Shown one piece after another: positions 372 to 64,000 of a stretch of DNA of 64,000 bases; position 1 is the first letter of the stretch; the number at the start of each line of letters is the position of its first letter. The DNA lies in NCBI GenBank assembly GCA_027484965.1, contig JAIXRY010000015.1, forward strand, positions 91,807-155,806, given 5' to 3'. The translations under genes and the position numbers were made by a program. The notes beneath the pieces are model-generated. The model searched no databases. It was not told the DNA's origin and saw only the letters and a list, made by a program, of their open reading frames with translations. This stretch comes from a bacterium. Lineage in GTDB: Bacteria > Patescibacteriota > Minisyncoccia > Phycocordibacterales > UBA9973.

Positions 372-3300
372 TTACTCAATATTTTTTACAGCCTCTATAA
401 TAATGCTTTTTTCATCATTTTTTAGAGAGACTTTTCCAGCAATTACAATAAGAGCGTCTTCAATAAGTATGGGTGCAAAGTCTTTGTAATTTTTAGGGAA
501 GAGGATTGTTTCAATACTTCCTGTAAGGTCTGTAATACGTACAAAAAGCATATAGTCGTTGTTTTTTGTTGTTATACGTTTAACTTCTTCAACAACACCA
601 CAAACCTTTATTGGGGCGTCTTTTTTGCCTTCTCTTTTAATACTCAAAATACTATTACACTTTGCAAGCTTTTCTTTGTAAGCTTCTAGAGGGTGACCAG
701 AAATATACAAACCAAGCAAATCTTTTTCCCAGGCCAGGCGAGTTTTTAGGTCTATTGGTTCTGTTGGACGAAGTCTTAGTTCTGGTGCAGACATGCCTCC
801 TAGGCCGAATAATGACGTCTGAGAATCACTTTTTTGTGCAAATGCTCTATTGTACTCAAGAAGCGCTTCGCTGTTAGCTAAGAGCAATCCACGCTCACCA
901 AACATATCCATCGCTCCAGCTTTAATGAGTGATTCGAGAGATTTTCTGTTGAGGTTTTTGTGAGTAATACGGTCGAGGAAGTTTCCAATAGAAGAGAAAG
1001 GTCCGTTCTTTTTTCTCTCTTCGATAATAGCGTCAGCAATATCCGTCCCGAGGTTTTTGATTGTGTAGAGTCCAAAACGAATTACTCTTGATTCTTCAAT
1101 AGTCTTATCTTCTTCTTTGATAACAGTAAATACACCAAAAGATTCATTGATATGTGGAGGAAGAACTTTTATTTTCATTCTTTCGCATTCATGAACATAA
1201 ATAGCGATCTGGTCTACATCGCCAGATTCAGCTGTCATACACGCACACATATAAGCAACAGGGAAGTTTGCTTTCATGAAAGCTGTTTGATACGCCACTA
1301 GTCCGTATGAAGCTGAGTGAGCTTTGTTGAAACCGTACGCCGCAAAAGGTTCGATCCATGACCATATTTCTGTAGCTTTCTTTTCACTCCATCCACTTGT
1401 TTTAACACAGCCTTTAATAAACTTTTCTCTTTGAGCTTGCATTTCTGCTGGAATTTTTTTACCAACAGCTTTACGGAATTTATCAACTTCACCCCAAGAA
1501 TACCCAGCCAAATGGTGAGCCATAAGTAGAAGGTCGTCTTGATATACAAGAATTCCATAGGTTGTTTTCAAAATATCTTCAAGTGCAGGGTCAAGATAAC
1601 TAATCAGTGCCGAGTTGTGTTTACGTGCAATATAGTCAGGAATGAATTGCATTGGACCTGGACGATAAAGCGCCACCATCGCATTGATGTCGTGAATTGT
1701 TGAAGGGCGAAGTTCTTTGAGCCATTTAGTCATTCCTGCGCCGTTTAATTGGAAAAGACCTTCTGTTTCTCCACGAGCAAGCATCTTGAAACTTCTTTCG
1801 TCAGCAAGATCTATATCATCAATATCAACTTTTATATTATAAATTTTATCTACGAGTGTGACAGCGTCTTTTAAAATTGAAAGGTTGCGAATACCAAGGA
1901 AGTCGAATTTTGTAAGTCCAGCCCCATCTTCACCCACAGAATACATATCGTACTGAGTAATAAGTTTTCCACCTTTAGGGTCGAACTGTAGAGGAGTATA
2001 GTCTGTAAGATCTGTTGGTCCAATAACAACACCTGCCGCGTGAACAGAGATGTGTCTTGCTCCACCTTCTATCTTTTTGGCCATGTCTATAATAATAGAA
2101 GTCTCACGGTCGTTATCGTACATTTCTTTGAGTTCAGGAACTTCTGCGAGTGCGCGTTCAATTGTCATTGGGAAACCCTGAGCTCCCATGGGAATCATTT
2201 TTGATATTCTATCTCCAACACCGTATGGATATCCGAGAGCACGTGCCACATCACGTACAGATCCACGTGCTGCCATTGTCCCAAAAGTTCCAATTTGTGC
2301 AACTTTTTTTTCTCCGTATTTATGACGCGCATAATCAATAATCTCATCGCGTCTGTTATCGGCGAAGTCCATATCAATATCAGGTGCAGAAGGACGTTCA
2401 GGGTTCAAGAAACGCTCAAAAGGAATGTTGTATAAAAGCGGATTAACTTTTGTAATACCAAGAGTATAAGTAGTCATTGATCCTGCAACAGATCCACGAA
2501 TGTTATAATAAATATCATTTTCTCGTGCGTAGCGGATAAGGTCGTGCACAACCAAAAAGTATGTTGCGTAACCTTTGAAAGCAATAATTCCAAGTTCGTA
2601 TTCCAATCTTTCTTTTGCTTTTTCATCATCTTCAAGCCCTCGAACAGTGAGTCCTTCTACACACAATTCATGAAGACGCATATCGGGTGTTACGTCTGGT
2701 GGTAGAGGGAAAATAGGGAAGACGAATTTACCTAGAGTTAGTTCTAGGTTGCACATATCCGCAACTTTTTTTGTATTTTCGTACGCTCCGGGAATATTTT
2801 CAAATGCTTTTTTAGCTTCTTCTGATGTAATGAAAGAATAATTTCCTTTCATTTTCATTTTATTGCTTTGGACATCTCCTCCTGTATTGATAGCGACAAG
2901 CGTTTCTTGAGCTTCCCAGTCTTCTTTGTGCATGTAGTGAGCGTCCCACGTACCAACTATCGGCAGATCAAATTCTTTTGAAAGTGTTTTTATATCTTCT
3001 ACAACCTTGTCATAACCTTCCATTTCAAAATGCCCCATGACTTCGAGGAAGAAGTTTTCTTTTTCAAATATATCAATAAAACTTTTTACTATTTCACGCC
3101 CTTTTTCTAAGTCACGATTAAATAAAGCTTTTGCAAGTTCACCGCTAGGACAACCAGAAAGACAGATTATTCCTTCACTGTGTGTTTTGAGTATTTCCTT
3201 GTCCATTCTTGGTTTATAATAATATCCATCAATCTGAGATATAGTTACAAGCTTCATCAAATTTTTATACCCTTCAAAATTCTTTGCAAGTAAGGTGAGG

Positions 3301-3635: not shown

Positions 3636-4268
3636 TTGTTGTTTTGTTATACTGTGATAATGCAATATATTGTTGGTATTGATGAAGTAGGAAGGGGGCC
3701 TATTGCTGGTCCTGTGGCTGTGTGTGCTTTTTTGGTAAGCAATGATTTTCAAAAAGAAGTAGAAGAATTTTCTAAAAAAAATAAGCTCCCCATTCGTGAC
3801 TCAAAAAAACTCACCGAAAAAATGCGTGATAGATGGTATGAATTTTTAATTAAAAGTAAAAAAGAAGGGAAGTGTGATTTTTCTGTCTCTCTTGTGTCTG
3901 CAAGTGATATAGACTCGCATGGAATAGTTCCTGCAATCAAAAAGGCACTTACGACTTCTTTAAAAAAAGTCGCAATAGATACTTCTGTAAAGATTGTTTT
4001 GGATGGAGGGTTGAAAGCACCTAGTGAATATACAAATCAAGAAAGTTTTATAAAAGGGGATGAATTATATCCTGTAATCTCTCTTGCTTCAATTGTGGCA
4101 AAAGTTTCTCGAGATACGCTGATGAAAAAGTATGCCAAAGAATTCTCAGAATATGGATTTGATAATAATGCAGGCTATGGGACAAAAGCTCATTATGAAG
4201 CAATACAAAAATACGGCCTAACTACACTTCATAGGAAGACTTTTCTTAGAAAGATAAAAATAGTATAA
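3636..4268 (+). CDS. rnhB: ribonuclease HII
   Basis: Motif GIDEVGRGPIAGPV typical of RNase HII; the true start is probably the internal Met near 3660 (MQYIVGIDE). Confidence 0.85.
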   Translation: MLFCYTVIMQYIVGIDEVGRGPIAGPVAVCAFLVSNDFQKEVEEFSKKNKLPIRDSKKLTEKMRDRWYEFLIKSKKEGKCDFSVSLVSASDIDSHGIVPAIKKALTTSLKKVAIDTSVKIVLDGGLKAPSEYTNQESFIKGDELYPVISLASIVAKVSRDTLMKKYAKEFSEYGFDNNAGYGTKAHYEAIQKYGLTTLHRKTFLRKIKIV

Positions 4269-4276
4269 TATGTTTT

Positions 4277-4915
4277 ATGAAAAAAATAATTAGTTTCTTA
4301 ATAGTTTTTCTTGTTTCTGCAAATATTTCTTTTGCAAGTACTAATAATATTCCACAAACAATTTTTACTGACACAGTGACTACAGGTAAGCAAAAAAGTG
4401 TAATATTTAATGGACATATAGATACAAATACTGGCTACCTAGGTACAACTGTTGGTCCAAATTTCTATTTCGAATATGGTACTGATATTAATAAATATAC
4501 AAAGACTAATTCTCAGACAATCAATGAGGGTGTTGATGGAAAATTTTCTGCAACAGTTACAGGACTTAAAAAGAATACACTTTATTATTATAGATTTGTT
4601 CAAGAAACAGGAAGTACTATGAATTCAGAAATAATAAAAACTGGAGGAGAACTACGTATTTTTTATCTTACAAAAAGTAATAAGGTAGAAATACTCAATC
4701 TTTGTTCTATTACAAAAAATATTCGTTTTGGTTCTAAGGATAGTGGTCAAGTTTATTTGTTGCAAAAATTCCTTAATGAAGCAAACGTTCTCTCTGCTCG
4801 TCCTGATGGAAATTTTGGTCCAAAAACTCTTGTTGCATGGAAGAAATATCAAAAAGACAGTGGAATAAAAAAGATATCAGATCTGAATTTTTGCGGTCAG
4901 AATCATGGAATGTAA
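4277..4915 (+). CDS. secreted protein with FN3-like region and C-terminal peptidoglycan-binding-like domain
   Basis: N-terminal signal peptide (MKKIISFLIVFLVSANISFA); C-terminal segment LLQKFLNEANVLSARPDGNFGPKTLVAWKKYQ resembles PG_binding_1 domains. Confidence 0.5.
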   Translation: MKKIISFLIVFLVSANISFASTNNIPQTIFTDTVTTGKQKSVIFNGHIDTNTGYLGTTVGPNFYFEYGTDINKYTKTNSQTINEGVDGKFSATVTGLKKNTLYYYRFVQETGSTMNSEIIKTGGELRIFYLTKSNKVEILNLCSITKNIRFGSKDSGQVYLLQKFLNEANVLSARPDGNFGPKTLVAWKKYQKDSGIKKISDLNFCGQNHGM

Positions 4916-8915: not shown

Positions 8916-9989
8916 TTACTTATTCTCTACGAGTGTAAGTGTCATCTTTTGTTCTTTTGGTTCAAACAATGTAACTGTGAAGTCATATGTTTTTCCTAGA
9001 GAAAGATGTTTTTTGAGTTCTGCATCTCCACCAAATGAAGAGTTGTGTACTAGACCAGCAACACCTTCTTTGATTGATACGAGAGCACCGTGTTTGTTGT
9101 ATTTGATAACAACACCTGAGATTGTATCTCCTTTTTTGAGTTTACCTTCGAATGATGTCCAAGGGTTTTCTTTAAGAGCTTTGATAGAAAGAGAAACTTT
9201 TCCTTCTTTGATATCAATAACTTTTGCTTGAACTTTGTCACCGATTTTGAACATTTGGCGAGGATCTTCTACTAGACCCCAATCGATTTCTGAGATGTGA
9301 ACAAGTCCTTCTAGACCTTCTTCAACTTTCAAGAATACTCCGAAATCAACAAGTCCTGCAACAGTTGTAGTAACTTCGTCACCGATATTGTATTTTCCAA
9401 CCATTTCTTGGCGTTCTCCAGAATCAGATTCTTTTTCTGAGAAGATAAGTTTACCTTCTTTTGAGAGAGCTGAAATGATAGTAACAGAAAGAGATTGTCC
9501 AACGAGTTTCTTCAATTCTTTCAAGATTTTATCTTTATCTGAATCAAGAACACGAGGGTAGTGATCTGCTTTCAATTGTGATGCAGGAAGGAATCCTGGA
9601 ATACCTTGCCATTCAAGGATAAGACCACCTTTGTTTGCTTCTTTAACGATTAAGTCGATAGGAAGTTTTGCTTTGATAGCTTTTTCAGCTTCACTCCAAA
9701 TGAGGGCTTGTTTTGCTTCTTTCAAAGAAAGTTCAACATAACCTTCTTCGTTTTCGATATCTACTACTTTTGCTTTGATTGTATCTCCAAGATTAATCTT
9801 GCGGATAATATCACGAGCGTTTATAAATTCACGTCCATAGATGATACCTGTTCCTTGTGGTCCAAGATCAACATAAACTGATGATTTTTGAATTGATATA
9901 ACTGGTCCTTCGACTAATGCGTCAAGAACTGGTTTATCCATTATTTTTTCTGCAAATTGTTTCATATTGGTATAAAAAATACCGCACAT
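8916..9989 (-). CDS. rpsA: 30S ribosomal protein S1 (short form)
   Basis: Repeated S1 domains; likely true start at the second Met (MKQFAEK, about 9965). A small hairpin (ccgca-cata-tgcgg, 9985-9998) lies between the two candidate starts. Confidence 0.8.
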   Translation of the reverse strand: MCGIFYTNMKQFAEKIMDKPVLDALVEGPVISIQKSSVYVDLGPQGTGIIYGREFINARDIIRKINLGDTIKAKVVDIENEEGYVELSLKEAKQALIWSEAEKAIKAKLPIDLIVKEANKGGLILEWQGIPGFLPASQLKADHYPRVLDSDKDKILKELKKLVGQSLSVTIISALSKEGKLIFSEKESDSGERQEMVGKYNIGDEVTTTVAGLVDFGVFLKVEEGLEGLVHISEIDWGLVEDPRQMFKIGDKVQAKVIDIKEGKVSLSIKALKENPWTSFEGKLKKGDTISGVVIKYNKHGALVSIKEGVAGLVHNSSFGGDAELKKHLSLGKTYDFTVTLFEPKEQKMTLTLVENK

Positions 9990-19445: not shown

Positions 19446-20264
19446 ATGAAAAATTTATTATACAAAATCATTGTTCCTTCATTACTTGTACTTGCTTTCA
19501 TAATCCCTATATTTCCCCAAAAAGCACAAGCTCTGACAGATCAAGAACAACAAGTAATTCTCCAGACAGCACTTTCTGCTATTATGATAGCTTTTCCGTA
19601 TATTTGTGGAGGTGCGTCTGTACCTACAGATACACCAGAGCAAGCGCAGCAACGTGAAAAAGTTAGACAAGCTTGTAGAAATACCGGGCAAATAAGTTCT
19701 CAAGTTATGTATATATTGATACAGTTATACCCTGAAGTATGTCAAAGAATGCCAAATGTTTGTTCTAGTATTATGCAAGTATTGGGTGCACTTGGTGGAA
19801 GTGGGGTTGTAGGTGGTTTTGGTGGTACAGGCCCTACAGTTATAGGAACTGGAGCGGGAGGAGCTATCTCTACTGGTCCAACTGCTGGTGGTGGTGGAGC
19901 TTTCGTTTCTACTGGCCCAACAGTTGCTAATATTACATACGCGTCCGGTCCTGCAAATGGAGGGTGCCCATCTGGTATATCTAATATTTCTGATATATAT
20001 CTACTCGCAAAATGTATTTTGGCTGGAATGGTTATTCCGATGATATTTATACTAGCATTCTTGGTATTTCTTTGGGGTGTGATGCAATTTATAAGAAAAG
20101 GAGACAATCAAGCAAAACGTCAAGAAGGTATTAATTTTATGTGGTACGGAATAGTTTCTCTTTTTGTAATGACTTCAGTGTGGGGAATTGTTAAGATTGC
20201 TACGACGACTCTCGGAGTAGATGGCACATATATACCAAAAGTAGAATCCCCAAAGAAAAACTAG
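19446..20264 (+). CDS. pilin-like protein (paralog)
   Basis: Same architecture; shared motifs FLWGVMQFIRKGDNQAKR and LFVMTSVWGIV. Confidence 0.5.
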   Translation: MKNLLYKIIVPSLLVLAFIIPIFPQKAQALTDQEQQVILQTALSAIMIAFPYICGGASVPTDTPEQAQQREKVRQACRNTGQISSQVMYILIQLYPEVCQRMPNVCSSIMQVLGALGGSGVVGGFGGTGPTVIGTGAGGAISTGPTAGGGGAFVSTGPTVANITYASGPANGGCPSGISNISDIYLLAKCILAGMVIPMIFILAFLVFLWGVMQFIRKGDNQAKRQEGINFMWYGIVSLFVMTSVWGIVKIATTTLGVDGTYIPKVESPKKN

Positions 20265-20356
20265 CACTTATATATATATATTTTGTATAATATGAAGAGT
20301 AGGCGCTGTCGTGTCTATGGACTATTAGTTTTTATTATTATTTATAATTTTTTATT

Positions 20357-20758
20357 ATGAAAAAGTTTATTCCTTTTGCAAGTGCACTTGCTCTTCCAGC
20401 TCTTGCTTTTGCACAAACTCGACCAGATTTTACTTATCTCGAATCTACATTTAATGCAGGTAAAGGTGTTTTAAGTGGTGCTATTAATGTGATAATGATT
20501 CTTGCATTCGTATATTTCCTTTGGACAGTTATTCAGTTTATTAGAGCAGAAGCTGGTAAAAAAGCAGATGCTCGTACAAATATGATTTATGCAATCATTG
20601 GTTTGTTTGTAATGACTTCTGTTTGGGGTATTGTTGGTATTCTTCGTCAAACAACTCAAGCAGGTCAAGGCGGTCAAGGTACTATTACTTGTCCTCCAGG
20701 AACTACTGCACAACAAGTAACTGGCGCTAATGGTCTTAGAACTGTTGTTTGTTACTAA
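20357..20758 (+). CDS. pilin-like protein (paralog)
   Basis: FLWTVIQFIRAEAGKKADAR and LFVMTSVWGIV motifs. Confidence 0.5.
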   Translation: MKKFIPFASALALPALAFAQTRPDFTYLESTFNAGKGVLSGAINVIMILAFVYFLWTVIQFIRAEAGKKADARTNMIYAIIGLFVMTSVWGIVGILRQTTQAGQGGQGTITCPPGTTAQQVTGANGLRTVVCY

Positions 20759-21087
20759 GTATGTTTTGGTTAATTCCTTTTACTCAAATAGCTCATGCAC
20801 AAGATGTGGGAGAAAAGTTGATTAATACTGTTTTAGACAAGATTATTAATCCACTAGTATTCTTCTTGTTCGTTGCAGCTCTTATATACTTTCTTTGGGG
20901 TGTCTTTATGTATCTCAAAGATGGTGATAAACAAGACGCTAGAACTACAGGTTCACGGCACATTCTTTGGGGGCTGGTGGGTTTGGTTATTATGATGAGT
21001 GTATACGGCATCATACGACTCGTTGTAAACACCTTCAACTTTCAAGCACCAAGTCGTACTGTAGACTTGAAGAGTATAGGGAAATAG
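20749..21087 (+). CDS. pilin-like protein (paralog)
   Basis: FLWGVFMYLKDGDKQDAR and VIMMSVYGII motifs. Confidence 0.5.
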   Translation: MLLSMFWLIPFTQIAHAQDVGEKLINTVLDKIINPLVFFLFVAALIYFLWGVFMYLKDGDKQDARTTGSRHILWGLVGLVIMMSVYGIIRLVVNTFNFQAPSRTVDLKSIGK

Positions 21088-23285: not shown

Positions 23286-23420
23286 CGACTACGTCGGCAG
23301 GTACTTTTCAATCTCGTAAACTCGATAATGAAAAGTCTTTCAAGTCCTCACGAAAAGTGTGCAGACATTTTTCTTCCCGAGCACAAAATAAAAAGCCTCA
23401 AAAATGAGGCTTTTTATTTT
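23286..23420. repeat. tRNA-associated palindromic repeat unit (copy 1, downstream of tRNA-Leu-TAG)
   Basis: cgac-tac-gtcg hairpin, ggtacttttcaat, ataatgaaaagtctttcaagtcc motif, gcag-loop hairpin, and inverted copy of the tRNA T-arm/acceptor (ttcaagtcctc...ttcccgagcac). Confidence 0.5.
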
Positions 23421-23503
23421 GTGCTCGGGAGAGGACTTGAACCTCCATGGATCACTCCACCTGTTCCTAAGACAGGCGCGGCTACCAATTACGCCACCCG
23501 AGC
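23421..23503 (-). tRNA. tRNA-Leu (anticodon TAG)
   Basis: Minus-strand 83-nt cloverleaf read by eye: acceptor GCTCGGG/CCCGAGC, anticodon loop CTTAGGA, long variable arm, T-loop TTCAAGT. Confidence 0.8.
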
Positions 23504-23643: not shown

Positions 23644-26600
23644 ATGTTAAATAATTTTAAATATTTTATAACCAGAAGCTATACACTTTTTGTGGTATCT
23701 ATCTTCATCTTCACATTTTCTATATTAAAAGTATCAGCTGTATACTATCCTACAGACAACATAACTAATCCTACATGTGCACCAGGTGCAGTAGGATGTT
23801 ATGTATCTTTACTTCCTGATCAGGTAGGTAATGCAGGTAAACTTTTAATTACTAACGGTACAAATCCTTCTTGGTCCAATACTATTGGAAATGATCTTAC
23901 TATAAATACTCTGACTGTTGGCTTAGGTGGTGGAAGTGTTTCTACTAACACAGCTGTTGGTGTTGAGACATTGTTTAGTAATACTACTGGAGGTGCTAAT
24001 ACTGCTAATGGTTTTAGATCTTTAAGAGAAAATACTACAGGTGATATGAATAGTGCTCTTGGATATAATTCACTTAGATATAATACAACCGGATCTGAAA
24101 ATGTTGCTTTTGGATATAATTCAATGTTTGCCAATACTTCAGGAGGTAAGAATTCAGCTTTTGGTAAAGAAACACTTTCTAGTAATACTACAGGTACTTA
24201 TAATACTGCAATAGGATATCAATCTCTCTTGTCTAATACATCAGGTGCATACAATGTTGCAATAGGTAATAATGCGCTTGATGCAAATACTACAGGTATA
24301 AGTAATATTGGATTTGGTCATAACGCTCTAGGAGTTAACACTTCCGGCTCATACAATATTGCTTCAGGTTGGAATACTTTATCTGCAAATACTACAGGTA
24401 GTCATAATATTGCTTTTGGTTCAGACACTCTAGGTTTAAATACTACAGGTATTCAAAATATTGCACTGGGACAACAGGCGCTAGTTAATAATTTGTCTGG
24501 TCAATATAATGTTTCAATAGGGACACAGTCACTTTTTAATAATACTACCGGTGGCAACAATCTAGCTTATGGGTACTATGCTGGTTACAATAGTCAGACA
24601 GGTTCAAATAATATTTTTATTGGAGCACAAACTGGTCTTGGTATAACAACAGGTTCAAACAACACAATCATTGGTGCTAATGTTACAGGACTCTCTTCAT
24701 CTCTTTCAAATAATATTATTATTGCAGACGGTGCAGGGAATCAAAGAATTAATATAGATAGTAATGGTAATGCAGAAATAGGTGGAAATATTTATTCTGC
24801 TGGTTTGAAGTGGAGTACAACAGCCCCTGTAGCTGACAGGCAATGGGTTGATGTAGGTTATGGAAATGGACTCTTTGTTGCTGTAGCTCAAGGTTCTGGA
24901 ACAGACAGAATTATGACATCTCCTGATGGTGTAAACTGGACATTGAGAACTCACTCTACTTCATCATTAAAATCAATCACTTATGGTAATGGAATATTCG
25001 TAGCGGCTGGTCATTCTGGTACCCGTTTTTTAACCTCTACAGATGGAATAACTTGGACAGCCCGTACTGGTACAGGACAATCGTTTTATGTAACTTACGG
25101 TAATGGTCTTTTTGTTGCTTCAAAAATAGATAATGCTGGGCTTAGAATTATAACATCTCCAGATGGAATAACTTGGACAGATAGAGTAACTCCTGTAGGA
25201 GCTGATAAACCTTGGGTTGGAATAACTTACGGTAATGGTCTTTTTGTTACTGTGGCTGAGACGAATGGAACACAGTCTATTATGACATCTCCAGATGGTA
25301 TAAACTGGACACTACAGACACACCCATCTGTTTCTTCTGGTGGATTTGAAAACGTTGCTTATGGTGATGGTAAATTTGTAGCTGTCGGTATTGGTGGTTT
25401 AGTTATGACATCTCCAGACGGAGTAAACTGGACACAACAGTCTTTCCCAAATGCAGCCCTTCTTTATCGAATAACTTATGCTGAGGGCATGTTTGTTACA
25501 GCTGGAGCTTTCTCTACAACAAACAACAATATTTATACTTCACCTGATGGTATAACTTGGACAACAAGAGTTGTTCCTAAAAATGATTGGGCTGGAGTTG
25601 CTTATGGTAATGGACGTTTTGTAATGGTTGCCTTTTCTGGAACTCTCGGTAGTCGTGTTGCATACTCTGGTAAAATGTCTACACTAGACACTTTAACAGC
25701 AAATATATTCCACGGTAATCATTTCTTTACTGCTAACATCGGCATCGGCACAACCTCTCCCTTCGGCAAACTCGACGTTGCAGGCTCATCATCAAGTACA
25801 GACTTAGTAGCATTCGACACAAACAGAAGTATCTCTGTAATCAACACAAACACTACAACAAACAACGCACAAGGTATAGCACTCCGTTCATATGGTACAG
25901 ACGGAACAACTATCCAATCAGGTGTAAAACTCCTTGCAGTTAACACAGCAAGAACAGCTACAACAATAACTTCTGATCTTGCAATCCTTACCAACAATGC
26001 TGGTACGATAAGTGAGAAGATGCGTATTCTTGCAAATGGAAAAGTAAATATTGGAACGGGTAATGTTTATAATACTGATTCAAATACTCTTCTGAATGTT
26101 TATGGTAATATGGGGGTTGTTAGAGCTAATAATCCTGCCTCTGTTTTTGTAGGAAGAACTCAATCAGGAGGACTTCCTACAGCTAGTGCTACATTAGGTA
26201 GTCTCGGAGCTGCGCTTTTTGATGGGACAAATTGGGTGGCTGGTGGTAATAGATTTGCTTTCTTTGCTGCAGAAAACTGGACAAATAGTGCGCAAGGCAC
26301 TTGGATGAGATATGCAAGTGTTCCAGTGGGTTCGAATGCATCTGTTAATATTTTAGAAATAACACCTTCAGGACAATTTAATTTTGGTACAAGCACTCTC
26401 TATCCAGCTCTCACAGAAACATCTCGATTGATGGTTAATGGTCTAGGTTCAACATCATCTACATTTACAGCTCAATTTCATAATTCAACAGGAACTTCAA
26501 ATTCTTTAGTTGTTCGTGATGATGGTAGAGTAGGTATAGGAAACAACGCTCCATCACACACCCTCCACGTCGGCTCAGGCTCTGTAGTCGGCATCGTCTC

Positions 26601-27264
26601 CCGCTTCCAAAACAGTACCGGAACCTGTGACATCAACCCAACAACAACATCACTCTCATGTAGTTCAGATATCAACCTCAAGAAGAACATCACAACTCTA
26701 AAAGATAATCAACCTTTCGTACTAAACTCTCAAACTCCAGATACAAATGTCCTTAAGAATCTAAACAAACTAACACCAGTTATCTACAACTGGACTACAG
26801 AACAAGACACAGCTACAAAACAAACAGGATTCATCGCACAAGACGTAGAACAAATCTTCCCATCTCTTGTATCTACAGACCCTACAACAAACCTCAAGTC
26901 TCTTAACTACATAGGTCTCATCCCATATGCTATAGAAGGTATTAAAGAGTTAGATATCAAGGTTAATCAGTTGAGTTCTTTGGATGATACAGTTGAAGGA
27001 ACATTTGCTTCATTGATAAAATCATATTTATCTAATGCTACAAATCGTATAACTCGTATATTTACAGGAGAAGTTTGTTTGACTGATAGTGATGGAAGTT
27101 CTGAATGTTTGAACAAACAAGAACTACACCAGTTGAAGCAATTGCTTAATAATCAAGGAGTATCAAATAATACTAGTAATCCTGTAGTAGAAGAAGAAGT
27201 TGTAATTCCTGATGAGCCTGCAATTACACCTGAAAATCCTGTAATAGAAGAAGTAATTGAATAA
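23644..27264 (+). CDS. giant tail-fibre-like surface protein with C-terminal peptidase S74 intramolecular-chaperone domain
   Basis: 1206 aa. N-terminal signal anchor; about 20 repeats of a 14-15 aa N-x-A-x-G unit, Hep_Hag/tail-fibre-like; eight V-x-YGNGLFVAV...IMTSPDG(V/I)NWT Asp-box-like propeller repeats; C-terminal SSDINLKKNI...TGFIAQDVEQIFPSLV...LNYIGLIPYAIEGIKELDIKVNQL matches the auto-cleaving chaperone domain of phage endosialidase/tail fibres. Confidence 0.6.
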   Translation: MLNNFKYFITRSYTLFVVSIFIFTFSILKVSAVYYPTDNITNPTCAPGAVGCYVSLLPDQVGNAGKLLITNGTNPSWSNTIGNDLTINTLTVGLGGGSVSTNTAVGVETLFSNTTGGANTANGFRSLRENTTGDMNSALGYNSLRYNTTGSENVAFGYNSMFANTSGGKNSAFGKETLSSNTTGTYNTAIGYQSLLSNTSGAYNVAIGNNALDANTTGISNIGFGHNALGVNTSGSYNIASGWNTLSANTTGSHNIAFGSDTLGLNTTGIQNIALGQQALVNNLSGQYNVSIGTQSLFNNTTGGNNLAYGYYAGYNSQTGSNNIFIGAQTGLGITTGSNNTIIGANVTGLSSSLSNNIIIADGAGNQRINIDSNGNAEIGGNIYSAGLKWSTTAPVADRQWVDVGYGNGLFVAVAQGSGTDRIMTSPDGVNWTLRTHSTSSLKSITYGNGIFVAAGHSGTRFLTSTDGITWTARTGTGQSFYVTYGNGLFVASKIDNAGLRIITSPDGITWTDRVTPVGADKPWVGITYGNGLFVTVAETNGTQSIMTSPDGINWTLQTHPSVSSGGFENVAYGDGKFVAVGIGGLVMTSPDGVNWTQQSFPNAALLYRITYAEGMFVTAGAFSTTNNNIYTSPDGITWTTRVVPKNDWAGVAYGNGRFVMVAFSGTLGSRVAYSGKMSTLDTLTANIFHGNHFFTANIGIGTTSPFGKLDVAGSSSSTDLVAFDTNRSISVINTNTTTNNAQGIALRSYGTDGTTIQSGVKLLAVNTARTATTITSDLAILTNNAGTISEKMRILANGKVNIGTGNVYNTDSNTLLNVYGNMGVVRANNPASVFVGRTQSGGLPTASATLGSLGAALFDGTNWVAGGNRFAFFAAENWTNSAQGTWMRYASVPVGSNASVNILEITPSGQFNFGTSTLYPALTETSRLMVNGLGSTSSTFTAQFHNSTGTSNSLVVRDDGRVGIGNNAPSHTLHVGSGSVVGIVSRFQNSTGTCDINPTTTSLSCSSDINLKKNITTLKDNQPFVLNSQTPDTNVLKNLNKLTPVIYNWTTEQDTATKQTGFIAQDVEQIFPSLVSTDPTTNLKSLNYIGLIPYAIEGIKELDIKVNQLSSLDDTVEGTFASLIKSYLSNATNRITRIFTGEVCLTDSDGSSECLNKQELHQLKQLLNNQGVSNNTSNPVVEEEVVIPDEPAITPENPVIEEVIE

Positions 27265-27329: not shown

Positions 27330-27445
27330 TCATAGATTTTCATAAATAAGCAAAAGCTTTTCGATCCCTACACGCATATGAAGCAGTTCATATGCTTGAG
27401 GGGACAAAAAAACAAAAACACCAATTTGGTGTTTTTGTTTTTTTG
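27330..27445. repeat. tRNA-associated palindromic repeat unit (copy 2, downstream of tRNA-Lys)
   Basis: aaaagcttttcgatccctac + gcatatgaa-gcag-ttcatatgc hairpin + ttgaggggac(a)n ... tgtcccctca long palindrome ending inside the tRNA acceptor. Confidence 0.5.
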
Positions 27446-27518
27446 TCCCCTCAGTAGGGATCGAACCTACGACATTCTCCTTAAGAGGGAGCTACTCTAC
27501 CAGCTGAGTTATGAGGGG
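27446..27518 (-). tRNA. tRNA-Lys (anticodon CTT)
   Basis: Minus strand; acceptor CCCCTCA/TGAGGGG (unusual C1-G72), D-loop AGCTGGTA, anticodon loop CTCTTAA, T-loop TTCGATC. Confidence 0.7.
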
Positions 27519-45770: not shown

Positions 45771-45841
45771 TGGGGAATCGTCTAATGGTAGGACTTCGGA
45801 TTTTGGTTCCGACTATCTAGGTTCGAGTCCTAGTTCCCCAG
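45771..45841 (+). tRNA. tRNA-Gln (anticodon TTG)
   Basis: U1-A72 acceptor TGGGGAA/TTCCCCA, D-loop TAATGGTAG, anticodon stem TCGGA/TCCGA with loop TTTTGGT, T-arm CTAGG-TTCGAGT-CCTAG. Confidence 0.75.
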
Positions 45842-45866
45842 CTATATACGGAAGAATTAAGAAATA

Positions 45867-45961
45867 GGGGATTTTGGTTCCGTTTATCTAGGCGCCTATT
45901 TTTAAAGAACTGAGTGATTATAAAAATAGTGCGTTTCGAAGAGGCGAGTCCTAGTTCCCCA
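45867..45961 (+). pseudogene. tRNA-Gln 3'-fragment copy interrupted by a ~50-nt palindromic insertion
   Basis: ggggattttggttccgtttatctagg + [cgc-ctattttta...tataaaaatag-tgcg tttcgaagag] + gcgagtcctagttcccca mirrors the anticodon-to-3' part of the adjacent tRNA-Gln but lacks the 5' half. Confidence 0.35.
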
Positions 45962-46118
45962 ACCAATAAGAGTTAGAACAAATACGTCTAGTCGATTGAT
46001 AGATAAAAGCTTTCCACAAAATAGGTATTTATTTGTATTACGCACCGGGATATAATGTAACTTATATGAAAAAGTGTTTTATAATAGATAAATTAACGAT
46101 TACATTTGCACTCCTCTC

Positions 46119-46442
46119 ATGGTTTGTACCTTTATTTGTCAGTTTTTTTTAGTAGATCCAGAAACAAAAGTAACCATTATTAATCCAATACTTTTTAAAG
46201 TATTGATGATTGTAATTGTTACTATCATAACTTTTTATGGTTATAGTAAAATAAATACAAAAACTGGTATAAGTATTCAGACGTCTAATACTTTTTTGGC
46301 TCTTAATTTTTTACTAGACATTGTAGTTCTAATAGTGTTGTTTAGTGTTCCTTTTATGGTATGGGCTACAACCATACTACCTGTATATATACTAGTGTTT
46401 TACGGAGTGTGCTTTATCATTAAAGGACATGGTATTCAGTAG
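46119..46442 (+). CDS. small membrane protein, hypothetical
   Basis: 107 aa, three TM helices; contains a T8 tract at 46143-46150. Confidence 0.35.
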   Translation: MVCTFICQFFLVDPETKVTIINPILFKVLMIVIVTIITFYGYSKINTKTGISIQTSNTFLALNFLLDIVVLIVLFSVPFMVWATTILPVYILVFYGVCFIIKGHGIQ

Positions 46443-46815
46443 TTTTAATCCACCGTTTACAAATAAAACTCTAGAGGACTTTTTTGAATTTTATACAAAA
46501 CATACTAATGACGCTAATACTCTTAGAGACTGGATTTTAGATACTTACCCAGATTTAGATATAGGTCTTTCCTATCACGTTCCTTTTTTCTATATAAACA
46601 AAAAGAAGTTATTTTACTTATACTATTTCAAAAATGAAGACGAAGAACTTGCTCTTGAAATCAGTTTTATTAAAGGTGTAAATATAAAAGATAAATATGT
46701 TTTGTTTCAAGAAAAAAACAAAGAGACTAAGTCTATAATTATTACAAATGTATCTGCGCCATTTTTGGATAAACTAAGGTATTACATAGATACTGTAATT
46801 GAACAAAATATTTAA
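46429..46815 (+). CDS. DUF1801/YdhG-like protein, putative
   Basis: About 128 aa; LRDWILDTYPDLDIGLSYHVPFFYINKKKLFYLYYFKN pattern resembles YdhG family. Confidence 0.4.
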   Translation: MVFSSFNPPFTNKTLEDFFEFYTKHTNDANTLRDWILDTYPDLDIGLSYHVPFFYINKKKLFYLYYFKNEDEELALEISFIKGVNIKDKYVLFQEKNKETKSIIITNVSAPFLDKLRYYIDTVIEQNI

Positions 46816-47085
46816 TATATACTCTCAAGTACCGTCGAAAGTGAAGGCATCAACGACAGCCTTACAGAGCTTGACCAACCACGATTCTAGCTCAAGTACT
46901 CCAGCAATACTATATAAAAACACCCGCGATAAAGTGGGTGTTTTTATATAGTATATTGTTGCTGTGTGGACTCGAACTGTGGGTCGCAATCCTCGTCGAG
47001 AGGATGAAGGTCTCGAACTCAGCATAGTGAGAGAAGAGTCCTAGTTTCTCAGTATTATGTAAAAAATTATTCAAGAGTTAAAAAA

Positions 47086-47119
47086 TAAAAAAGTCTCCAT
47101 TATTAATGGAGACTTAAAA
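47086..47119 (-). terminator. rho-independent terminator for the 47120-47629 gene
   Basis: aaaaaagtctccat-tatta-atggagactt; the T-run is on the minus strand. Confidence 0.5.
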
Positions 47120-47629
47120 TTATTGTACTTGATGTGGAACTATATTTAATAGCGTGTCAAGCGGTTGTTTTAAAAGTTTGTGCAAATCTTTGATTATTTC
47201 TTTGCAATTTTTTCCTTTAATGGAGATAGAACGTGCTTCCATTATTTCTCTATCTTTACCTGAAAATATGTCAGCAGCTATAATCTGAACTTTACCACCT
47301 TTTTTAAGTACAGCTCTCATATATCCTCCATTTAAATGTTCTCGTTTAATTGTAAAAATAAAATCTTGAAAAACTATTGTAATCTCAAGTCTCAATACAC
47401 CCCAAAGTGTTTTCCTCTTTTTCTCTGAAGTAGGGTTATGACATCCTGTTCCATGAATATTGTAATTTTCTAGCCTATTTAATTTCCCAGGTCTGTTTTC
47501 ATAAAAAATTAAAGAAGTAAGTAGTGTTGCAATAACAATATCATTTTCAGAAGGCTCTTCTTTCTCTAATAAAGATTGAAGGTTTTTAATTTGGTCAGGA
47601 CTGTCCCGATTTTTAAAATCTATTTTCAT
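47120..47629 (-). CDS. orphan hypothetical protein
   Basis: 169 aa soluble protein, sole minus-strand gene in an AT-rich island-like stretch. Confidence 0.4.
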   Translation of the reverse strand: MKIDFKNRDSPDQIKNLQSLLEKEEPSENDIVIATLLTSLIFYENRPGKLNRLENYNIHGTGCHNPTSEKKRKTLWGVLRLEITIVFQDFIFTIKREHLNGGYMRAVLKKGGKVQIIAADIFSGKDREIMEARSISIKGKNCKEIIKDLHKLLKQPLDTLLNIVPHQVQ

Positions 47630-48012
47630 ATTATTTAATTTTTTAATTTACTTTATAATATAGTATTTTTTTTAATCTGTCAATATATACTATATGTATA
47701 GATTGTATAGTTTAATTTTCTTTCAACAGGTATTTCAAAATCAGAAATTTTTCCATGTTAAAATTATTAAGAACAACAAATTAATAAGTAAATGAGAAAA
47801 ATAAAATATTATAGTAAAATTTTTTTCTGAATATTTTTATTTATGTTTATTTTTAAACAAAATAAAATTATGCCTAATCCTAAAATGAGGAGGGGAAGAA
47901 AAGTAGAAAGAATTCACTCATAAAGCCGCAAGTATGCGGCTTTTATAATTACTTGCTTTTTTGTCTTAATGTGTTAAAATTGTATCGAAACCTTTAAAAA
48001 TATTTTATTATT

Positions 48013-48219
48013 ATGAAAAAGTTCTTTTTATTATTGATTGTTTTTATGTTGTTTGTTCCTGGGTCATACGCTCAGACAGGTCCAGGTGAGGATGACCTTG
48101 AAGAAACAGGAGATGATGTGCCTATATCAGGAGTTGAATTTCTTGTTCTTTCAGCTGTTGCTTTTGGATTTTATTCTGTAAACAAAAAACAAAAAGAATT
48201 GAAAAGCATTACTGCTTAA
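48013..48219 (+). CDS. small exported peptide with C-terminal TM anchor and basic tail
   Basis: Signal peptide, acidic stretch, VPISGVEFLVLSAVAFGFYSV-NKKQKELK; terminator immediately downstream. Confidence 0.35.
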   Translation: MKKFFLLLIVFMLFVPGSYAQTGPGEDDLEETGDDVPISGVEFLVLSAVAFGFYSVNKKQKELKSITA

Positions 48220-48225
48220 TTACTA

Positions 48226-48257
48226 AAAAGCCGCGTTAGACGCGGCTTTAATTTTTC
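48226..48257. terminator. bidirectional terminator
   Basis: aaaaagccgcg-ttaga-cgcggctttaattttt. Confidence 0.6.
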
Positions 48258-48260
48258 TAA

Positions 48261-48758
48261 TTAATGAACGTGTTTTTTCTTTTTCCAAAAATGATAGAAG
48301 ACACACCCTAGTATTCCACTTATCACTACCGCTTCTATTGGTTCATGTGTGTTTTCTGGAATTTCTAATCCGACAGCTTTTGAAATTATAAATATTCCAA
48401 CCAAAAGAATTCCTGTTAGAATTATTGTCTTTTTTGGGTTCTTTGTATGGGTTAAGCTCTCTTCATAAAGAAAGACTATATCCATTCCAATGTGGAGGAT
48501 TCCAAATAGATAATCTTGTAATTTGTAAGTTTCTAAATATATTCCATGAGTTATCATGTCTATTCCCATATGTATCATTAATAAGAAAAGGGCTACTCTC
48601 CCGTGATATGAGTGTGATATAAGTGCAAGAAGAAGACCTGCAATAAGTCCTATTATTACAAGCGGATTTAAAAAAGGTAACTCTATTGCGTGGAATATTA
48701 AAACACCCGCATATATTACAAGGAAAGCTTTAAAAAATTTGTGATGATGATGTTTCAT
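48261..48758 (-). CDS. His-rich multi-pass membrane protein (possible metal transporter)
   Basis: MKHHHHK start; His residues within predicted TMs (HSYHG, HMGIDMITHG, HIGMD); divergent from a Fur-family regulator. Confidence 0.45.
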   Translation of the reverse strand: MKHHHHKFFKAFLVIYAGVLIFHAIELPFLNPLVIIGLIAGLLLALISHSYHGRVALFLLMIHMGIDMITHGIYLETYKLQDYLFGILHIGMDIVFLYEESLTHTKNPKKTIILTGILLVGIFIISKAVGLEIPENTHEPIEAVVISGILGCVFYHFWKKKKHVH

Positions 48759-48784
48759 ATTTATTTTTTTTATTCATTCTACTC

Positions 48785-48807
48785 TATTTGCAAGTGGCTT
48801 GCAAATA
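48785..48807. promoter_or_regulatory. perfect 10-3-10 palindrome, candidate Fur-family operator
   Basis: tatttgcaag-tgg-cttgcaaata in the divergent promoter region between the His-rich membrane gene and the Fur-family regulator. Confidence 0.4.
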
Positions 48808-49164
48808 AGGTACCATAAAATACATATGAAGACTAACAAATGTAAACAAAATATATTGTCTGTATTGTCTCAAAATCACTTACTTAGTATTAAAGATATG
48901 CAAAAGAAGTTGGGTAATAATGATTTCTCTACCATTTTTAGGAATGTTCTAAATCTCGAAAAAGAAGGATATATAAAGAAAGTAATTATAGAAAAAGATG
49001 TTACTATGTATGAGCTTGTATCTCATAATCACAATCATTTTATCTGTAATAAATGTAAAAAAATTGAAGAAATATTTTTATCTGGTTTTTCAGGGTTCAT
49101 TTCTAAAGATTTTAATGTTCAAGATATTACAGTCAGGGGACTTTGTAATGGGTGTAATAAATAA
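48799..49164 (+). CDS. Fur-family transcriptional regulator (Fur/Zur/PerR-like)
   Basis: N-terminal winged helix, HNHFICNKC...CNGCN metal-binding Cys motifs; the true start is probably 48826 (MKTNKCKQ), which places the palindrome upstream. Confidence 0.7.
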   Translation: MQIRYHKIHMKTNKCKQNILSVLSQNHLLSIKDMQKKLGNNDFSTIFRNVLNLEKEGYIKKVIIEKDVTMYELVSHNHNHFICNKCKKIEEIFLSGFSGFISKDFNVQDITVRGLCNGCNK

Positions 49165-49179
49165 TATAATCTATCTTAC

Positions 49180-50283
49180 ATGAATATTTTTAATAAAGTA
49201 ATTGGTTTATTTTTTCTTTTGATTTTTATTCCTCAAATATCTTTTGCTTTAGAAAAAAATGAAATTCAAAGAGCTAGAGTTTTAGAGATTGTAAATGAAC
49301 AAAAAACAACAGTATTTGGAAGTAATAGTGATTTTACTGAACAAGAATTAAATATAGAGATAATTTCTGGTTCTGAAAAGGGGAAAAAAGTTATTATCTA
49401 CAATGATTATATAAATCTCAAAAAGGGAGATAAGATATTTATTGATAGACATATAGATACAGGAGAAACATTTTATAAAATTTTAGAAAAAGATCGAAGA
49501 TTAAACCTCTTTTTGTTTGTTGTATTTTTTATTGCAATGATACTTTTTTTTGGAAAAAAACAAGGATTAAGATCTCTCTTGTCTTTATTTGGAAGTATTT
49601 TATTGATAGCTTATATTTTATTACCTCTTATATTAAAAGGTTATAATCCTCTTTTTGTTAGTATCGGTATCTCGTCTCTAATTTTATTTTTTGCTATATA
49701 TTTTACCCATGGTTTTAAAAAGACTTCGACAATAGCATTTTTAGGAACTTTAATCGCTGTCTGTTTTACTAGTATTCTTTCTTATATTGCGAGTATTACT
49801 TTGGGATTTTCAGGTTTTGGAAGTGAAGAAGCTACTTTTCTAAGTCTAAAAGCTGATTCGTATATTGATTTTTCAGGACTTCTTTTAGGTGGGATTATAA
49901 TTGGAGTTCTCGGTGTTTTAGATGATATTGCTATTACTCAAGTCGCAATAGTTCGTGAGTTGTATAGTGTTGGTAATATATCAAAAAAAGAAATATACAA
50001 GAAAGCAATTTCTGTTGGTCAGGAGCATGTTGGTGCTTTAGTAAATACTTTAGCACTTGCATATACTGGAGCATCTCTACCTCTATTACTACTTTTGTCT
50101 ATGTCTGACGCTCCTTTGTCAGTTATTATTAGTCAAGAAAAATTTTCTGTAGAGATTATAAGGACTATTGTTGGTAGTGTTGGACTTGTGTTGACCGTAC
50201 CTATAACTACATTTTTAGCTGTTTATTTTGTAAAAAAAGAAGACAAATTGGAGAGCGTATGTAATCACAAGCACTTTCATTAA
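49180..50283 (+). CDS. multi-pass membrane protein (YibE/F-like?)
   Basis: 367 aa, N-terminal signal plus extracellular domain then about 7 TMs. Confidence 0.4.
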   Translation: MNIFNKVIGLFFLLIFIPQISFALEKNEIQRARVLEIVNEQKTTVFGSNSDFTEQELNIEIISGSEKGKKVIIYNDYINLKKGDKIFIDRHIDTGETFYKILEKDRRLNLFLFVVFFIAMILFFGKKQGLRSLLSLFGSILLIAYILLPLILKGYNPLFVSIGISSLILFFAIYFTHGFKKTSTIAFLGTLIAVCFTSILSYIASITLGFSGFGSEEATFLSLKADSYIDFSGLLLGGIIIGVLGVLDDIAITQVAIVRELYSVGNISKKEIYKKAISVGQEHVGALVNTLALAYTGASLPLLLLLSMSDAPLSVIISQEKFSVEIIRTIVGSVGLVLTVPITTFLAVYFVKKEDKLESVCNHKHFH

Positions 50284-50301
50284 TTTATATTTAATTAAAT
50301 A

Positions 50302-51768: not shown

Positions 51769-51784
51769 GTATAATTCTAATAAT

Positions 51785-52177
51785 ATGGAAACAAAAAATA
51801 AACATAAAATACTTTTAGTTGAAGATGATCAAACTTTTATTGATTTATTAAGAAATAAATGTCTTGATTCTGGAATCGAAGTCTTTGTTGCTGAAAATGG
51901 TGAACAAGGAATAAAAATTGCTCTTGAAGAAAAACCTGACGTTATTATTACAGACTTAACAATGCCGATAATGGATGGTTTTGAATTTATTAAACAATTA
52001 AGAAATGATGTTTGGGGTAAAAAAGTACCAGTGATCATTCTTTCTAATTATGGTGACTTTGACAGGATTTCAAAGGCTTTAGAGACAGGAGCATTTTATT
52101 ATTTAGTAAAATCTGATGTCGATCAGAATGATGTATTATCTTATATAAATAAAGCTATAGTAGAATCTAAGTCTTAA
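51785..52177 (+). CDS. response regulator, receiver domain only
   Basis: ILLVEDD...DLTMPIMDGFEF...K; no output domain. Confidence 0.8.
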   Translation: METKNKHKILLVEDDQTFIDLLRNKCLDSGIEVFVAENGEQGIKIALEEKPDVIITDLTMPIMDGFEFIKQLRNDVWGKKVPVIILSNYGDFDRISKALETGAFYYLVKSDVDQNDVLSYINKAIVESKS

Positions 52178-62967: not shown

Positions 62968-64000
62968 TAATAAACACATGTTAAGTACTCTCAAGTACTT
63001 CTTGAGCCGAGCCTACACGATAGTATCTATCGTGCTTTTTGTACTATCTTACGGAGCTCTCAAAGTATCAGCTATATACTATCCTACAGATAATATAACA
63101 AACCCTACATGTGCACCAGGGGACTCTGGTTGTTATGTATCTTTACTTCCTGACCAAACATCTAATGCAGGGAAGTTTTTGACTACAAACGGCACTACTA
63201 CATCTTGGGCTACGGTGTCTGGTGGTATTTCAAGTTTCAACACTAGAACAGGTGCTATCACTTTAACATCTGGTGATGTAACTGGAGCTCTAGCGTACAC
63301 ACCTTTAAATAAAACTGGAGATACGATGACTGGAGACTTGAATTTGTTAAATATTCAAGCATCTACTTCTTCTGGAATTAATCTAAAAAATATCGGGGGT
63401 ACAACAATTTTTAATGTTGGGTCTGGTAGTGGAGTAAATGCAACAATCACTGCTCCATTAGCTTTAACGGGTGCTTTAACTCAAACAGGAAACGCAGACG
63501 CAGTTCAACTTCGCGTTCGAGGACACAGCACTCAAACTTCAGACTTGACTCAATGGGTGAATTCTTCTGGAACAGTTCTTAATTCAATCAGTGGAGCTGG
63601 TAACGCTGTTTTTGGGCCATCTATCGCACAAGTTCCAAAGGTAGGAATTAGTACAACTAACATCAATCAACCTCTTTTAGTTTTAAAAGCTCCTACTTCT
63701 TTCGCATCATTTTTATTTTTTGCTTTAGATTCTTCTGGGGTTCAAGTTGCTACTATTCATAATTCTGGTGAAAGTATTTTTAAATCTATTACAACAAGGA
63801 GTTCTTTAAACATTGAATCTACAGGAGATGCAACTATTTTTGTCGGTTCTCCAGACGGTGCTACATCTTCGATTGATTTTTTTTCAGATGGTAATGCAAA
63901 TTTTAAGGTTTTAGTAGAACCTTCAACAGATAATTTTATTATAAAGGATGAGGAGACTAATACTCCTTGGTTTAATATTGATAGAGCTAATCGTCGTGTT
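62968..64000 (+). CDS. tail-fibre-like surface protein paralog, partial (runs off window end)
   Basis: ATG at 62968, open to the window end; N-terminus VSAIYYPTDNITNPTCAPGDSGCYVSLLPDQ is near-identical at DNA level to 23720-23840; contains the GDTMTGDL motif common in phage tail-fibre proteins. Confidence 0.5.

Follow-up and report, generated by a model that had tools for sequence, protein, structure and literature searches.

The DNA analyzed here is a 64-kb stretch of contig JAIXRY010000015.1 (assembly GCA_027484965.1, positions 91,807 to 155,806), hereafter called the window, and the subject is a chromosomal gene in it that encodes a tail-fibre-like surface protein with a C-terminal S74 chaperone domain. 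Two segments of this fibre gene, termed codon islands 1 and 2, are rich in codons ending in A or C and nearly free of synonymous G, whereas the rest of the gene and the other genes of the window use mainly T-ending codons. The codon islands are real and strong. Probably, the gene belongs to a multi-copy fibre family of exchangeable modules, in which the two islands are modules with a history unlike that of the rest of the gene.

Island 2 comprises the neck and the core of the S74 chaperone, and homologous recombination or gene conversion has spread the cassette lineage to which it belongs among paralogues and related genomes, with crossovers at or near the repeated junction motif 'xGIGxxxPxxxLxV'. 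The cassette brings its own composition wherever it lands, and island 1 would have been imported by the same route. The composition shared by both islands, which at synonymous sites is rich in A and C, almost free of G and halved in T, would reflect a source pool with other codon usage. This pool may be a phage or a mobile element that has not been sampled, or else a Patescibacterium gene that is highly expressed or on the opposite strand, in a genome somewhat richer in GC.

Codon Usage and Borders of the Two Islands

Third codon positions were compared with a background of more than 2000 windows of 85 or 134 codons, taken from the 54 other open reading frames (ORFs) of the 64-kb window. The fraction of C at third positions (C3, with A3, G3, and T3 defined accordingly) is 0.33 in island 1 and 0.36 in island 2, compared with 0.11 in the background (standard deviation 0.045, maximum 0.27). 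The borders of the islands were determined by maximal-segment log-likelihood scoring, for which a shuffle null gave a 95% limit of 13.4. The scores of both islands are listed in Table 1, and no other segment of the window scores above 18.2. In a sliding window of 30 codons, two blocks are visible in which T3 falls from ~0.55 to 0.1–0.2, C3 rises from ~0.07 to 0.3–0.67, and G3 is 0. Both islands are also the top 150-nt windows of the whole 64 kb for (A+C)-(G+T) skew when the reading frame is ignored.

The bias was also found in synonymous choice, which does not depend on the amino-acid content. Among two-fold degenerate codons ending in a pyrimidine (two-fold Y codons), the islands have a C-to-T ratio of 36:11, compared with 44:185 for the remainder of the gene and 367:1235 for the other genes (Fisher p ~1e-13). 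ATC is used for 14 of the 19 isoleucine codons in the islands, and the ratio of CTN to TTR codons for leucine is 18:1, which indicates that T is avoided at codon position 1 too. At the four-fold degenerate sites, G was found in none of 126 cases. The same A/C signature is present in both islands. This synonymous composition, with a C/G ratio of 2.1 versus 0.85, roughly halves the predicted folding of the mRNA in the islands (-12 versus -21.5 kcal/mol per 120 nt).

A preliminary description of this DNA had reported two segments of C- and A-ending codons at about 25737–25990 and 26540–26940, surrounded by T-ending codons and bounded by abrupt switches. The segments were confirmed by the sliding third-position profile, which makes a clear step against the genome background, as well as by the frame-free skew, the background windows, the synonymous tests and the segment scoring. 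Their coordinates agree with those found here within a few codons, with a weak bias starting ~55 nt earlier in island 1, and the S74 domain lies inside island 2, as described. The borders are abrupt at the 5′ end of island 2 and at the 3′ end of island 1, whereas the other two are more gradual.

The core of island 1 begins at the motif IGIGTTSPFGKLDV (nt 25738) and corresponds to a discrete stalk-type module of amino acids (aa) ~696–807. Island 2 begins within the motif VGIGNNAPSHTLHV and spans the last ~43 residues of the mature fibre together with the core of the S74 chaperone. BLASTP searches with the C-terminal third of the protein returned two separate sets of matches, one restricted to aa ~696–807 without S74, and one reaching from aa 945–963 onward through S74. 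The borders of the islands are therefore also borders of protein modules.

Evidence for Island 2 as a Shared Cassette

The comparison with related loci supports the view that island 2 is a cassette which has been copied among Patescibacterial fibre paralogues and genomes by recombination or gene conversion. A counterpart of island 2 was found at the homologous position in the loci L002, L003, L004, L009 (on a 580-kb contig), L184, L279, and L280 (the numbers refer to the locus collection described below). The flanks and neighbouring genes of these relatives are even more T-biased, as the share of C among two-fold Y codons is 0.14–0.20 compared with 0.81–0.86 in the island.

L003 and L280, which are paralogues in one metagenome-assembled genome (MAG; GCA_031972855.1), share 398 nt at 99.5% identity, and outside the cassette only a 33-nt patch aligns. 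L002 and L280 share 324 nt at 97.8% identity. Furthermore, a tract of ~100 codons is the same in L002 and L003, which diverge on either side of it; L003 matches the window upstream and L002 matches it downstream. The 5′ breakpoint varies from gene to gene. In the syntenic pair L002 and L279, the number of synonymous differences is 0–3 per 28 codons in the island core, 4–7 per 27 codons in the tail and 11–14 per 27 codons in the conserved block upstream.

In L002, an extra domain is located between the 'RDDGxVGIG' block and the island, which are adjacent in the window gene, and this points to domain shuffling at the GIG motif. L184 crosses the 3′ junction between island and tail at 86.7% identity to the window. 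The more distant alleles L004 and L009 have only 57–66% protein identity and keep the signature.

The preliminary description had interpreted both segments as modules acquired by recombination. For island 2, this part of the interpretation holds, given the 99.5% tract and the varied breakpoints; for island 1 it is only plausible, and a donor of matching composition was not found.

Relatives of Island 1

Judged by sequence similarity, the stalk module encoded by island 1 has its closest known relatives among the virion proteins of phages. Its homologues have 62–76% aa identity, are confined to aa 696–807 and are located in phage contigs between the genes for capsid or head completion and those for tail tube or tape measure. 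The Patescibacterial modules of this type are at most 39% identical and T-ending. This difference in identity is the sole evidence for a history of island 1 other than that of its flanks, and an import by recombination, as for island 2, is plausible.

The phage relatives use ordinary codons with balanced third positions and have only ~70% DNA identity; as direct donors of island 1 they were rejected for these reasons. No second copy of island 1 or island 2 was found within the 64 kb.

Source of the Island Composition

A donor was searched for in 279 loci (2.7 Mb; 80 genome, 80 metagenome, and ~110 viral loci) and in GenBank phages. Several of the results weigh against modules that were simply brought in from a genome of other composition. 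None of the 279 loci, nor the GenBank phages, contains a whole gene or genome with the composition of the islands. Direct DNA relatives of the islands were not detected in phages, neither by blastn and tblastn against GenBank phages nor by exact 27-mer and protein-guided scans of IMG/VR, and island 2 has no close relative in either data set. The donor with different composition, which the preliminary description had postulated, is thus missing among the viral, GenBank phage, genome and metagenome contigs, and BLASTN of the segments against GenBank phages gave no direct DNA relative. Even the phage relatives of island 1 differ in codon usage, as stated above.

The pattern of divergence points in the same direction. 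Between the window and L002, nucleotide identity is 0.74 in the island and 0.77 in the T-ending tail, and both genes keep the signature. The synonymous differences between the two in the island are mostly exchanges of A and C (12 of 25, whereas the tail has 0 of 19). In L002 and L279, A3+C3 still amounts to 0.9–0.97 in the divergent 5′ part of the island, and L002 has drifted towards A and not towards the local T-rich background. The divergence of 26% with retained signature, the A3+C3 of the 5′ part and the A drift of L002 fit a long-lived C/A pool or selection better than a single decaying import. A recent import from a foreign genome is not the whole story, because the diverged alleles keep the signature without decay to the T-rich background.

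Amelioration of a module from a GC-rich donor under the local mutation bias was also considered and rejected as a misfit. The islands have lost their G-ending codons but retain C-ending ones, even though the strand of the gene is the one enriched in G and T (leading-type), and L002 moved towards A, not T. Polarising the substitutions by an outgroup was uninformative, since the sites are saturated.

Other results suggest that the cassette descends from a lineage richer in GC. In the tree obtained by neighbour joining, the cassette of the window, L002, and L003 is sister to a module from a contig of 42% GC and nests among modules of Patescibacteria with 44–50% GC and high C3. The C content at codon position 1 of the island is at the level of Patescibacteria genomes with 42–50% GC. 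The signature is lineage-specific, as T-ending S74 modules were found in the equally AT-rich loci L006, L008, L010, L012, L013, and L015.

The only clearly highly expressed gene of the window is rpsA (8916–9989, minus strand). ATC accounts for 0.66 of its isoleucine codons, compared with at most 0.35 in all other genes of the window; G at four-fold sites is 0.00 and C among two-fold Y codons 0.46. The corresponding values of the islands are 0.67–0.80, 0.00, and 0.75. In addition, minus-strand genes are richer in third-position C and A, with C among two-fold Y codons being ~0.42 compared with 0.22 for plus-strand genes. The codons of rpsA and the strand difference indicate that the genome has a strand effect and some translational selection. 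As the source of the islands, a gene with high expression, a late gene of a phage or a pool of opposite-strand genes in related bacteria is plausible but unproven.

Alternative Explanations

The composition might also be the result of selection in situ on synonymous sites, with recombination merely spreading it. Such selection could favour Watson-Crick-matched codons for fast and accurate decoding, unstructured mRNA, a C-rich and G-poor, rut-like tract for Rho loading, or a G/T-rich complement that promotes RecA pairing and cassette exchange. It would account for the signature in L004 and L009 at their low protein identity, for a heavy synonymous turnover confined to A and C, and for the missing decay to the T-rich background. 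Besides, the islands look like an exaggerated rpsA pattern, their mRNA folds more weakly with a raised C/G ratio, and C-rich, G-poor modules occur elsewhere in other Patescibacterial fibre genes (L039, L029, and L052). However, the S74 modules of bacteria and phages show no family-wide shift across 150 loci, and equally AT-rich relatives with ~55–60% identical modules lack the signature. A general S74 property was rejected on these grounds, namely the lack of a consistent shift and the T-ending modules in AT-rich genomes. Within island 2, C/A codons are not linked to amino-acid conservation, and accuracy selection at conserved residues was rejected from the alignment columns (odds ratio 1.08 and p=1.0 for C vs. 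T; p=0.69 for AC vs. GT). Furthermore, the four-fold sites favour A over T, unlike in rpsA, the rest of the same mRNA is unaffected, and it is difficult to believe that selection in a genome of this kind would exceed that on a gene for a ribosomal protein. Selection in situ as the cause of the islands is, on this balance, unlikely.

Quite unlikely, too, is a nucleic-acid-level function of the cassette, for which the A/C-rich, G-free composition would be kept by selection. In one form of this idea, the two conserved modules on either side of the variable distal module would offer their G/T-rich complementary strands as preferred pairing substrates, making the fibre tip a recombination hotspot at which cassettes are replaced. 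In the other form, the C-rich, G-poor, unstructured mRNA over the chaperone would be a Rho-loading or translation-pacing signal. The point behind both is the persistence of the signature through heavy synonymous turnover, in two unrelated modules and without decay.

A local mutation or repair bias tied to frequent gene conversion could act either as GC-biased conversion or as deamination of the antisense strand, the latter being strand-asymmetric and taking place during recombination or antisense transcription, and either would alter the segment that undergoes conversion most frequently. In keeping with this, the island is the segment of highest identity between paralogues, and the changes relative to the background, from T to C and from G to A on the sense strand, equal antisense-strand deamination of A and C. 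If conversion were GC-biased, G3 should increase along with C3, yet G3 is ~0 in the islands; this form was rejected because G3 falls from 0.09 to 0.00–0.04 while C3 rises from 0.11 to 0.35. A bias linked to replication should deplete the sense strand of C and not of G, as the gene is on the G/T-enriched strand, and no antisense ORF or promoter feature is common to both islands. Moreover, island 1 is without a known paralogous partner for conversion. Taken together, a bias of this kind is decidedly improbable.

An assembly artefact, in which a metagenome contig was threaded through modules of another organism to give a chimeric gene, is very improbable. The contig is of the metagenome type, the exact protein occurs on one contig only, and a repetitive multi-copy family breaks assemblies, as seen where the public contig L260 ends at the beginning of the paralogue. 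However, the same island with T-ending flanks is present in at least seven other independent assemblies, including the 580-kb contig, and L184 spans the 3′ junction between island and tail. Neither the reading frame nor the order of the domains is disrupted, and no organism of island composition was seen that could supply the reads.

Finally, it is hardly credible that an overlapping antisense gene or RNA constrains the third positions: a 92-aa minus-strand ORF (25719–25997) coincides with island 1, but the minus-strand ORFs of island 2 have just 37–71 aa in different frames, and no Rfam family matches there. The 92-aa ORF is most likely a by-product of the low plus-strand T, which removes minus-strand stop codons. 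Neither an overlapping antisense gene nor inverted copies of the cassette found support as a cause within the window. A target of a diversity-generating retroelement was rejected as well, as there is no second island copy in the 64 kb and no reverse transcriptase among the annotated ORFs.

Architecture of the Fibre Gene

The features of the fibre gene and of its paralogue in the window are listed in Table 1. An identical protein (P0001) was found on one 156.8-kb NCBI contig. The 1206-aa protein consists, in this order, of a hydrophobic N-terminal signal or anchor, a conserved block, NTxxG repeats, SPDGxxW repeats, stalk modules and the S74 chaperone. The hydrophobic N-terminus was read straight from the translation.

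Table 1. Features of the fibre gene and its paralogue in the 64-kb window.
Feature	Position	Strand	Evidence and properties
Fibre gene	23644–27264	+	ORF and translation, 1206 aa; tail-fibre-like surface protein, frame intact
Family-wide N-terminal block, signal/anchor and 'YYPTDNITNPTCAPG'	23644–23880	+	Repeat D4, blastn, translation
SPDG(I/V)xW ... YGNG.FV tandem repeats, six to seven	24830–25640	+	Direct-repeat families D1–D6, period ~120–130 nt
Codon island 1, aa 680–784	25681–25995	+	A3 0.43, C3 0.33, G3 0.00, T3 0.23; score 32.6
Intervening module, aa 785–964	25996–26535	+	Native T-ending codons (third-position profile)
Codon island 2, aa 965–1094	26536–26925	+	A3 0.38, C3 0.36, G3 0.04, T3 0.22; score 45.9
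S-D-x-x-x-K motif (S1008 DINL K1013), catalytic/cleavage motif of S74	26665–26682	+	Regular expression on translation
C-terminal tail of the chaperone region	26926–27264	+	Normal T/A-ending codons
Second gene of the same fibre family, start only	62977–64000	+	Repeat D4, blastn, translation; runs off the window end

The N-terminal block is common to the second fibre gene of the window and to L002, L279, and L280 (75–91% nt identity, with blastn values of 75–81% for L002, L279, and L280). Within the window it was detected as the repeat D4 (23728–23874 vs. 63062–63208, 80% DNA identity). The N-terminus of the second fibre gene reads 'MLSTLKYFLSRAYT...YYPTDNITNPTCAPG', and L002 matches the window at 63036–63141 in this gene (blastn). 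The public contig L260, which carries the neighbouring gene for a penicillin-binding protein (PBP), stops exactly before the second fibre gene, as expected, because repeats break assemblies.

The NTxxG-type repeat region matches PHROG families of virion structural and tail-spike proteins. The SPDGxxW repeats resemble BNR/beta-propeller repeats, with a weak Pfam match to DUF6242 at aa 506–596, and use normal T-ending codons according to the third-position profile. The stalk modules each begin with the 'xGIGxxxPxxxLxV' motif (aa 699 and aa 963). The module between the two islands probably contributes to the distal region of the mature fibre. Over its last ~90 nt, it has 80–83% identity to T-ending sequence of L002 and L003 (blastn, 26445–26542).

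The C-terminal S74 chaperone was identified by Pfam family PF13884 at aa 1008–1076 (nt 26665–26871) with an E-value of 7.6e-14 and 52 bits, compared with a cut-off of 22. The S, D, and K of its SDxxxK motif are invariant in the 20-sequence alignment A1. The protein sequence of the tail is conserved with L002, L279, and L184 to the same degree as that of island 2. Based on its sequence, the product of this chromosomal gene is predicted to be a trimeric, tail-fibre-like surface adhesin with a self-cleaving S74 chaperone.

Comparison With Known Fibre Systems

The mosaic adhesive trimer (MAT) fibres of Bdellovibrio bacteriovorus form a subfamily of S74 proteins (PDB 8OML, 8OJN, 8ONB, and 8ONC; Caulton et al., 2024, PMC10769870), and S-D-x-x-x-K is given as the definition of the catalytic or cleavage motif of S74 chaperones in the same article (PMC10769870). 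The window gene resembles the MAT genes in being chromosomal and belonging to a multi-copy family of tail-fibre-like surface proteins. The proteins of both start with a signal peptide and a conserved block, continue in a long stalk of repetitive, trimer-type modules and a distal part that varies, and end in an S74 chaperone with SDxxxK. Both kinds of fibre belong to a bacterium that lives on other cells. However, the N-terminal block of the window gene differs from that of the Bdellovibrio MAT proteins, which makes the likeness an analogy and not a proven homology, and the window protein adds the SPDGxxW propeller-like region. As far as it was read, the MAT article contains nothing on codon-usage islands or on cassette sharing at the DNA level (PMC10769870).

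In the PDB, the C-terminal 517 aa of the window protein match only Bd1334 and Bd3182 (MAT family, 'cell wall surface anchor') and a phage long tail fibre. The phmmer matches to 8OML and 8OJN are weak (E-values of 3e-3 to 6e-3) and limited to the stalk repeats with the GIG motif. Loci from Bdellovibrio and Oligoflexia also occur among the S74 relatives.

Phage fibres have a mosaic structure with junctions at conserved motifs, and they exchange receptor-binding domains as modules. With the S74 fibres and tailspikes of phages (Peptidase_S74, as in the K1F endosialidase and T5 pb1), the window gene has the domain and the catalytic motif in common; its repeat region matches PHROG virion and tail-spike families, and the relatives of island 1 are phage virion proteins. 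In contrast to the phage genes, the window gene is located among housekeeping and tRNA genes, without phage genes nearby.

In bacterial surface-protein families, mosaic genes that arise by intragenic homologous recombination or gene conversion are detected as compositional islands. With such genes, the fibre gene shares compositionally atypical segments, tracts of identity that end inside the gene, neighbouring segments with different histories and paralogues that evolve in concert. It differs from them in that the islands are a strand-specific excess of A+C without synonymous G and not a plain GC shift, in that the signature is kept in diverged alleles, and in that no donor was found in the 279 loci.

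Modular exchange in fibre genes is a well known mechanism. What makes the present case a moderately interesting new one is its setting in a MAT-like Patescibacterial fibre family with a neck-plus-chaperone cassette shared at the DNA level and a persistent A+C/no-G signature. A literature search gave nothing relevant on codon islands in such genes. The results show that tail-fibre-like surface proteins of ultra-small, host-dependent bacteria evolve like the receptor-binding proteins of phages. A conserved neck-and-chaperone cassette is copied between paralogues and genomes, and a junction motif that recurs in the gene is the site where variable parts are exchanged, which bears on the way such bacteria switch their target cells. 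Islands of codon usage also offer an inexpensive means of finding such cassettes in raw sequence. A source of the composition, if found, would reveal an unsampled gene pool such as the phages of Patescibacteria; if no source exists, selection on the RNA or DNA of the cassette would be indicated.

Two other kinds of compositional pattern were observed in related fibre genes. In L020 (Nomurabacteria JARIGO010000019, ~4001–4498) and its paralogues L005, L011, and L017, from a genome of 48% GC, one S74 module is strongly GC3-rich compared with the rest of its gene (C3 0.5, G3 0.3, A3 0.05), which is a mosaic of another compositional kind. In L039 (Parcubacteria GW2011_GWB1_37_13), a repeated stalk module at 1973–2270 and 2753–3110 has a C3 of 0.3–0.45 and a G3 of 0.03–0.05, and the 'ERMTILNNGNVGIG' junctions between the stalk copies are G3-rich. 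The islands of L029 and L052 are located at other positions.

Genomic Setting of the Fibre Gene

The window, with a GC content of ~35%, is part of a bacterial chromosome. It codes for DnaE, HisRS, ribosomal protein S1, GyrA, IF-2, RbfA, ClpB, TopA, DprA, SerRS, FtsQ, Dus, DnaX, two PBPs, MraW, and GreA as well as for five tRNAs and several small T4SS-pilin-like proteins. The host is probably a bacterium of the Patescibacteria (Candidate Phyla Radiation, CPR), because the conserved ends of the fibre gene have their closest relatives in MAGs labelled Paceibacterota, Nomurabacteria, or Patescibacteria.

The neighbours of the fibre gene have no PHROG matches, and there are no phage genes nearby. 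A phage origin of the locus was rejected, given the housekeeping and tRNA genes around the gene and the lack of PHROG matches in its neighbours. The preliminary description had treated the product as a phage receptor-binding protein, which is not borne out by the Pfam and PHROG searches of the surroundings, as the gene is chromosomal and phage neighbours are absent.

The fibre gene is bracketed by the genes for tRNA-Leu and tRNA-Lys on the minus strand. Perfect inverted repeats of 26 nt and 28 nt (23375–23430 and 27397–27453) adjoin the 3′ ends of these tRNA genes and resemble terminators whose sequence overlaps the ends of the tRNAs. The plus strand upstream of the fibre gene encodes a series of small membrane proteins (19446–21087), which are paralogous and have weak T4SS-pilin matches; this region contains the repeat D12 (20138–20192 vs. 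20581–20635, 75% identity). Finally, the 3′ part of tRNA-Gln (45798–45821) recurs 71 nt downstream at 45869–45892 with 92% identity (region 45771–45892), and it is followed by the segment with the lowest GC content of the window (46000–52000, 0.28–0.30). The tRNA-Gln repeat and the 6 kb of low GC content may be the remnant of an integration at this tRNA.

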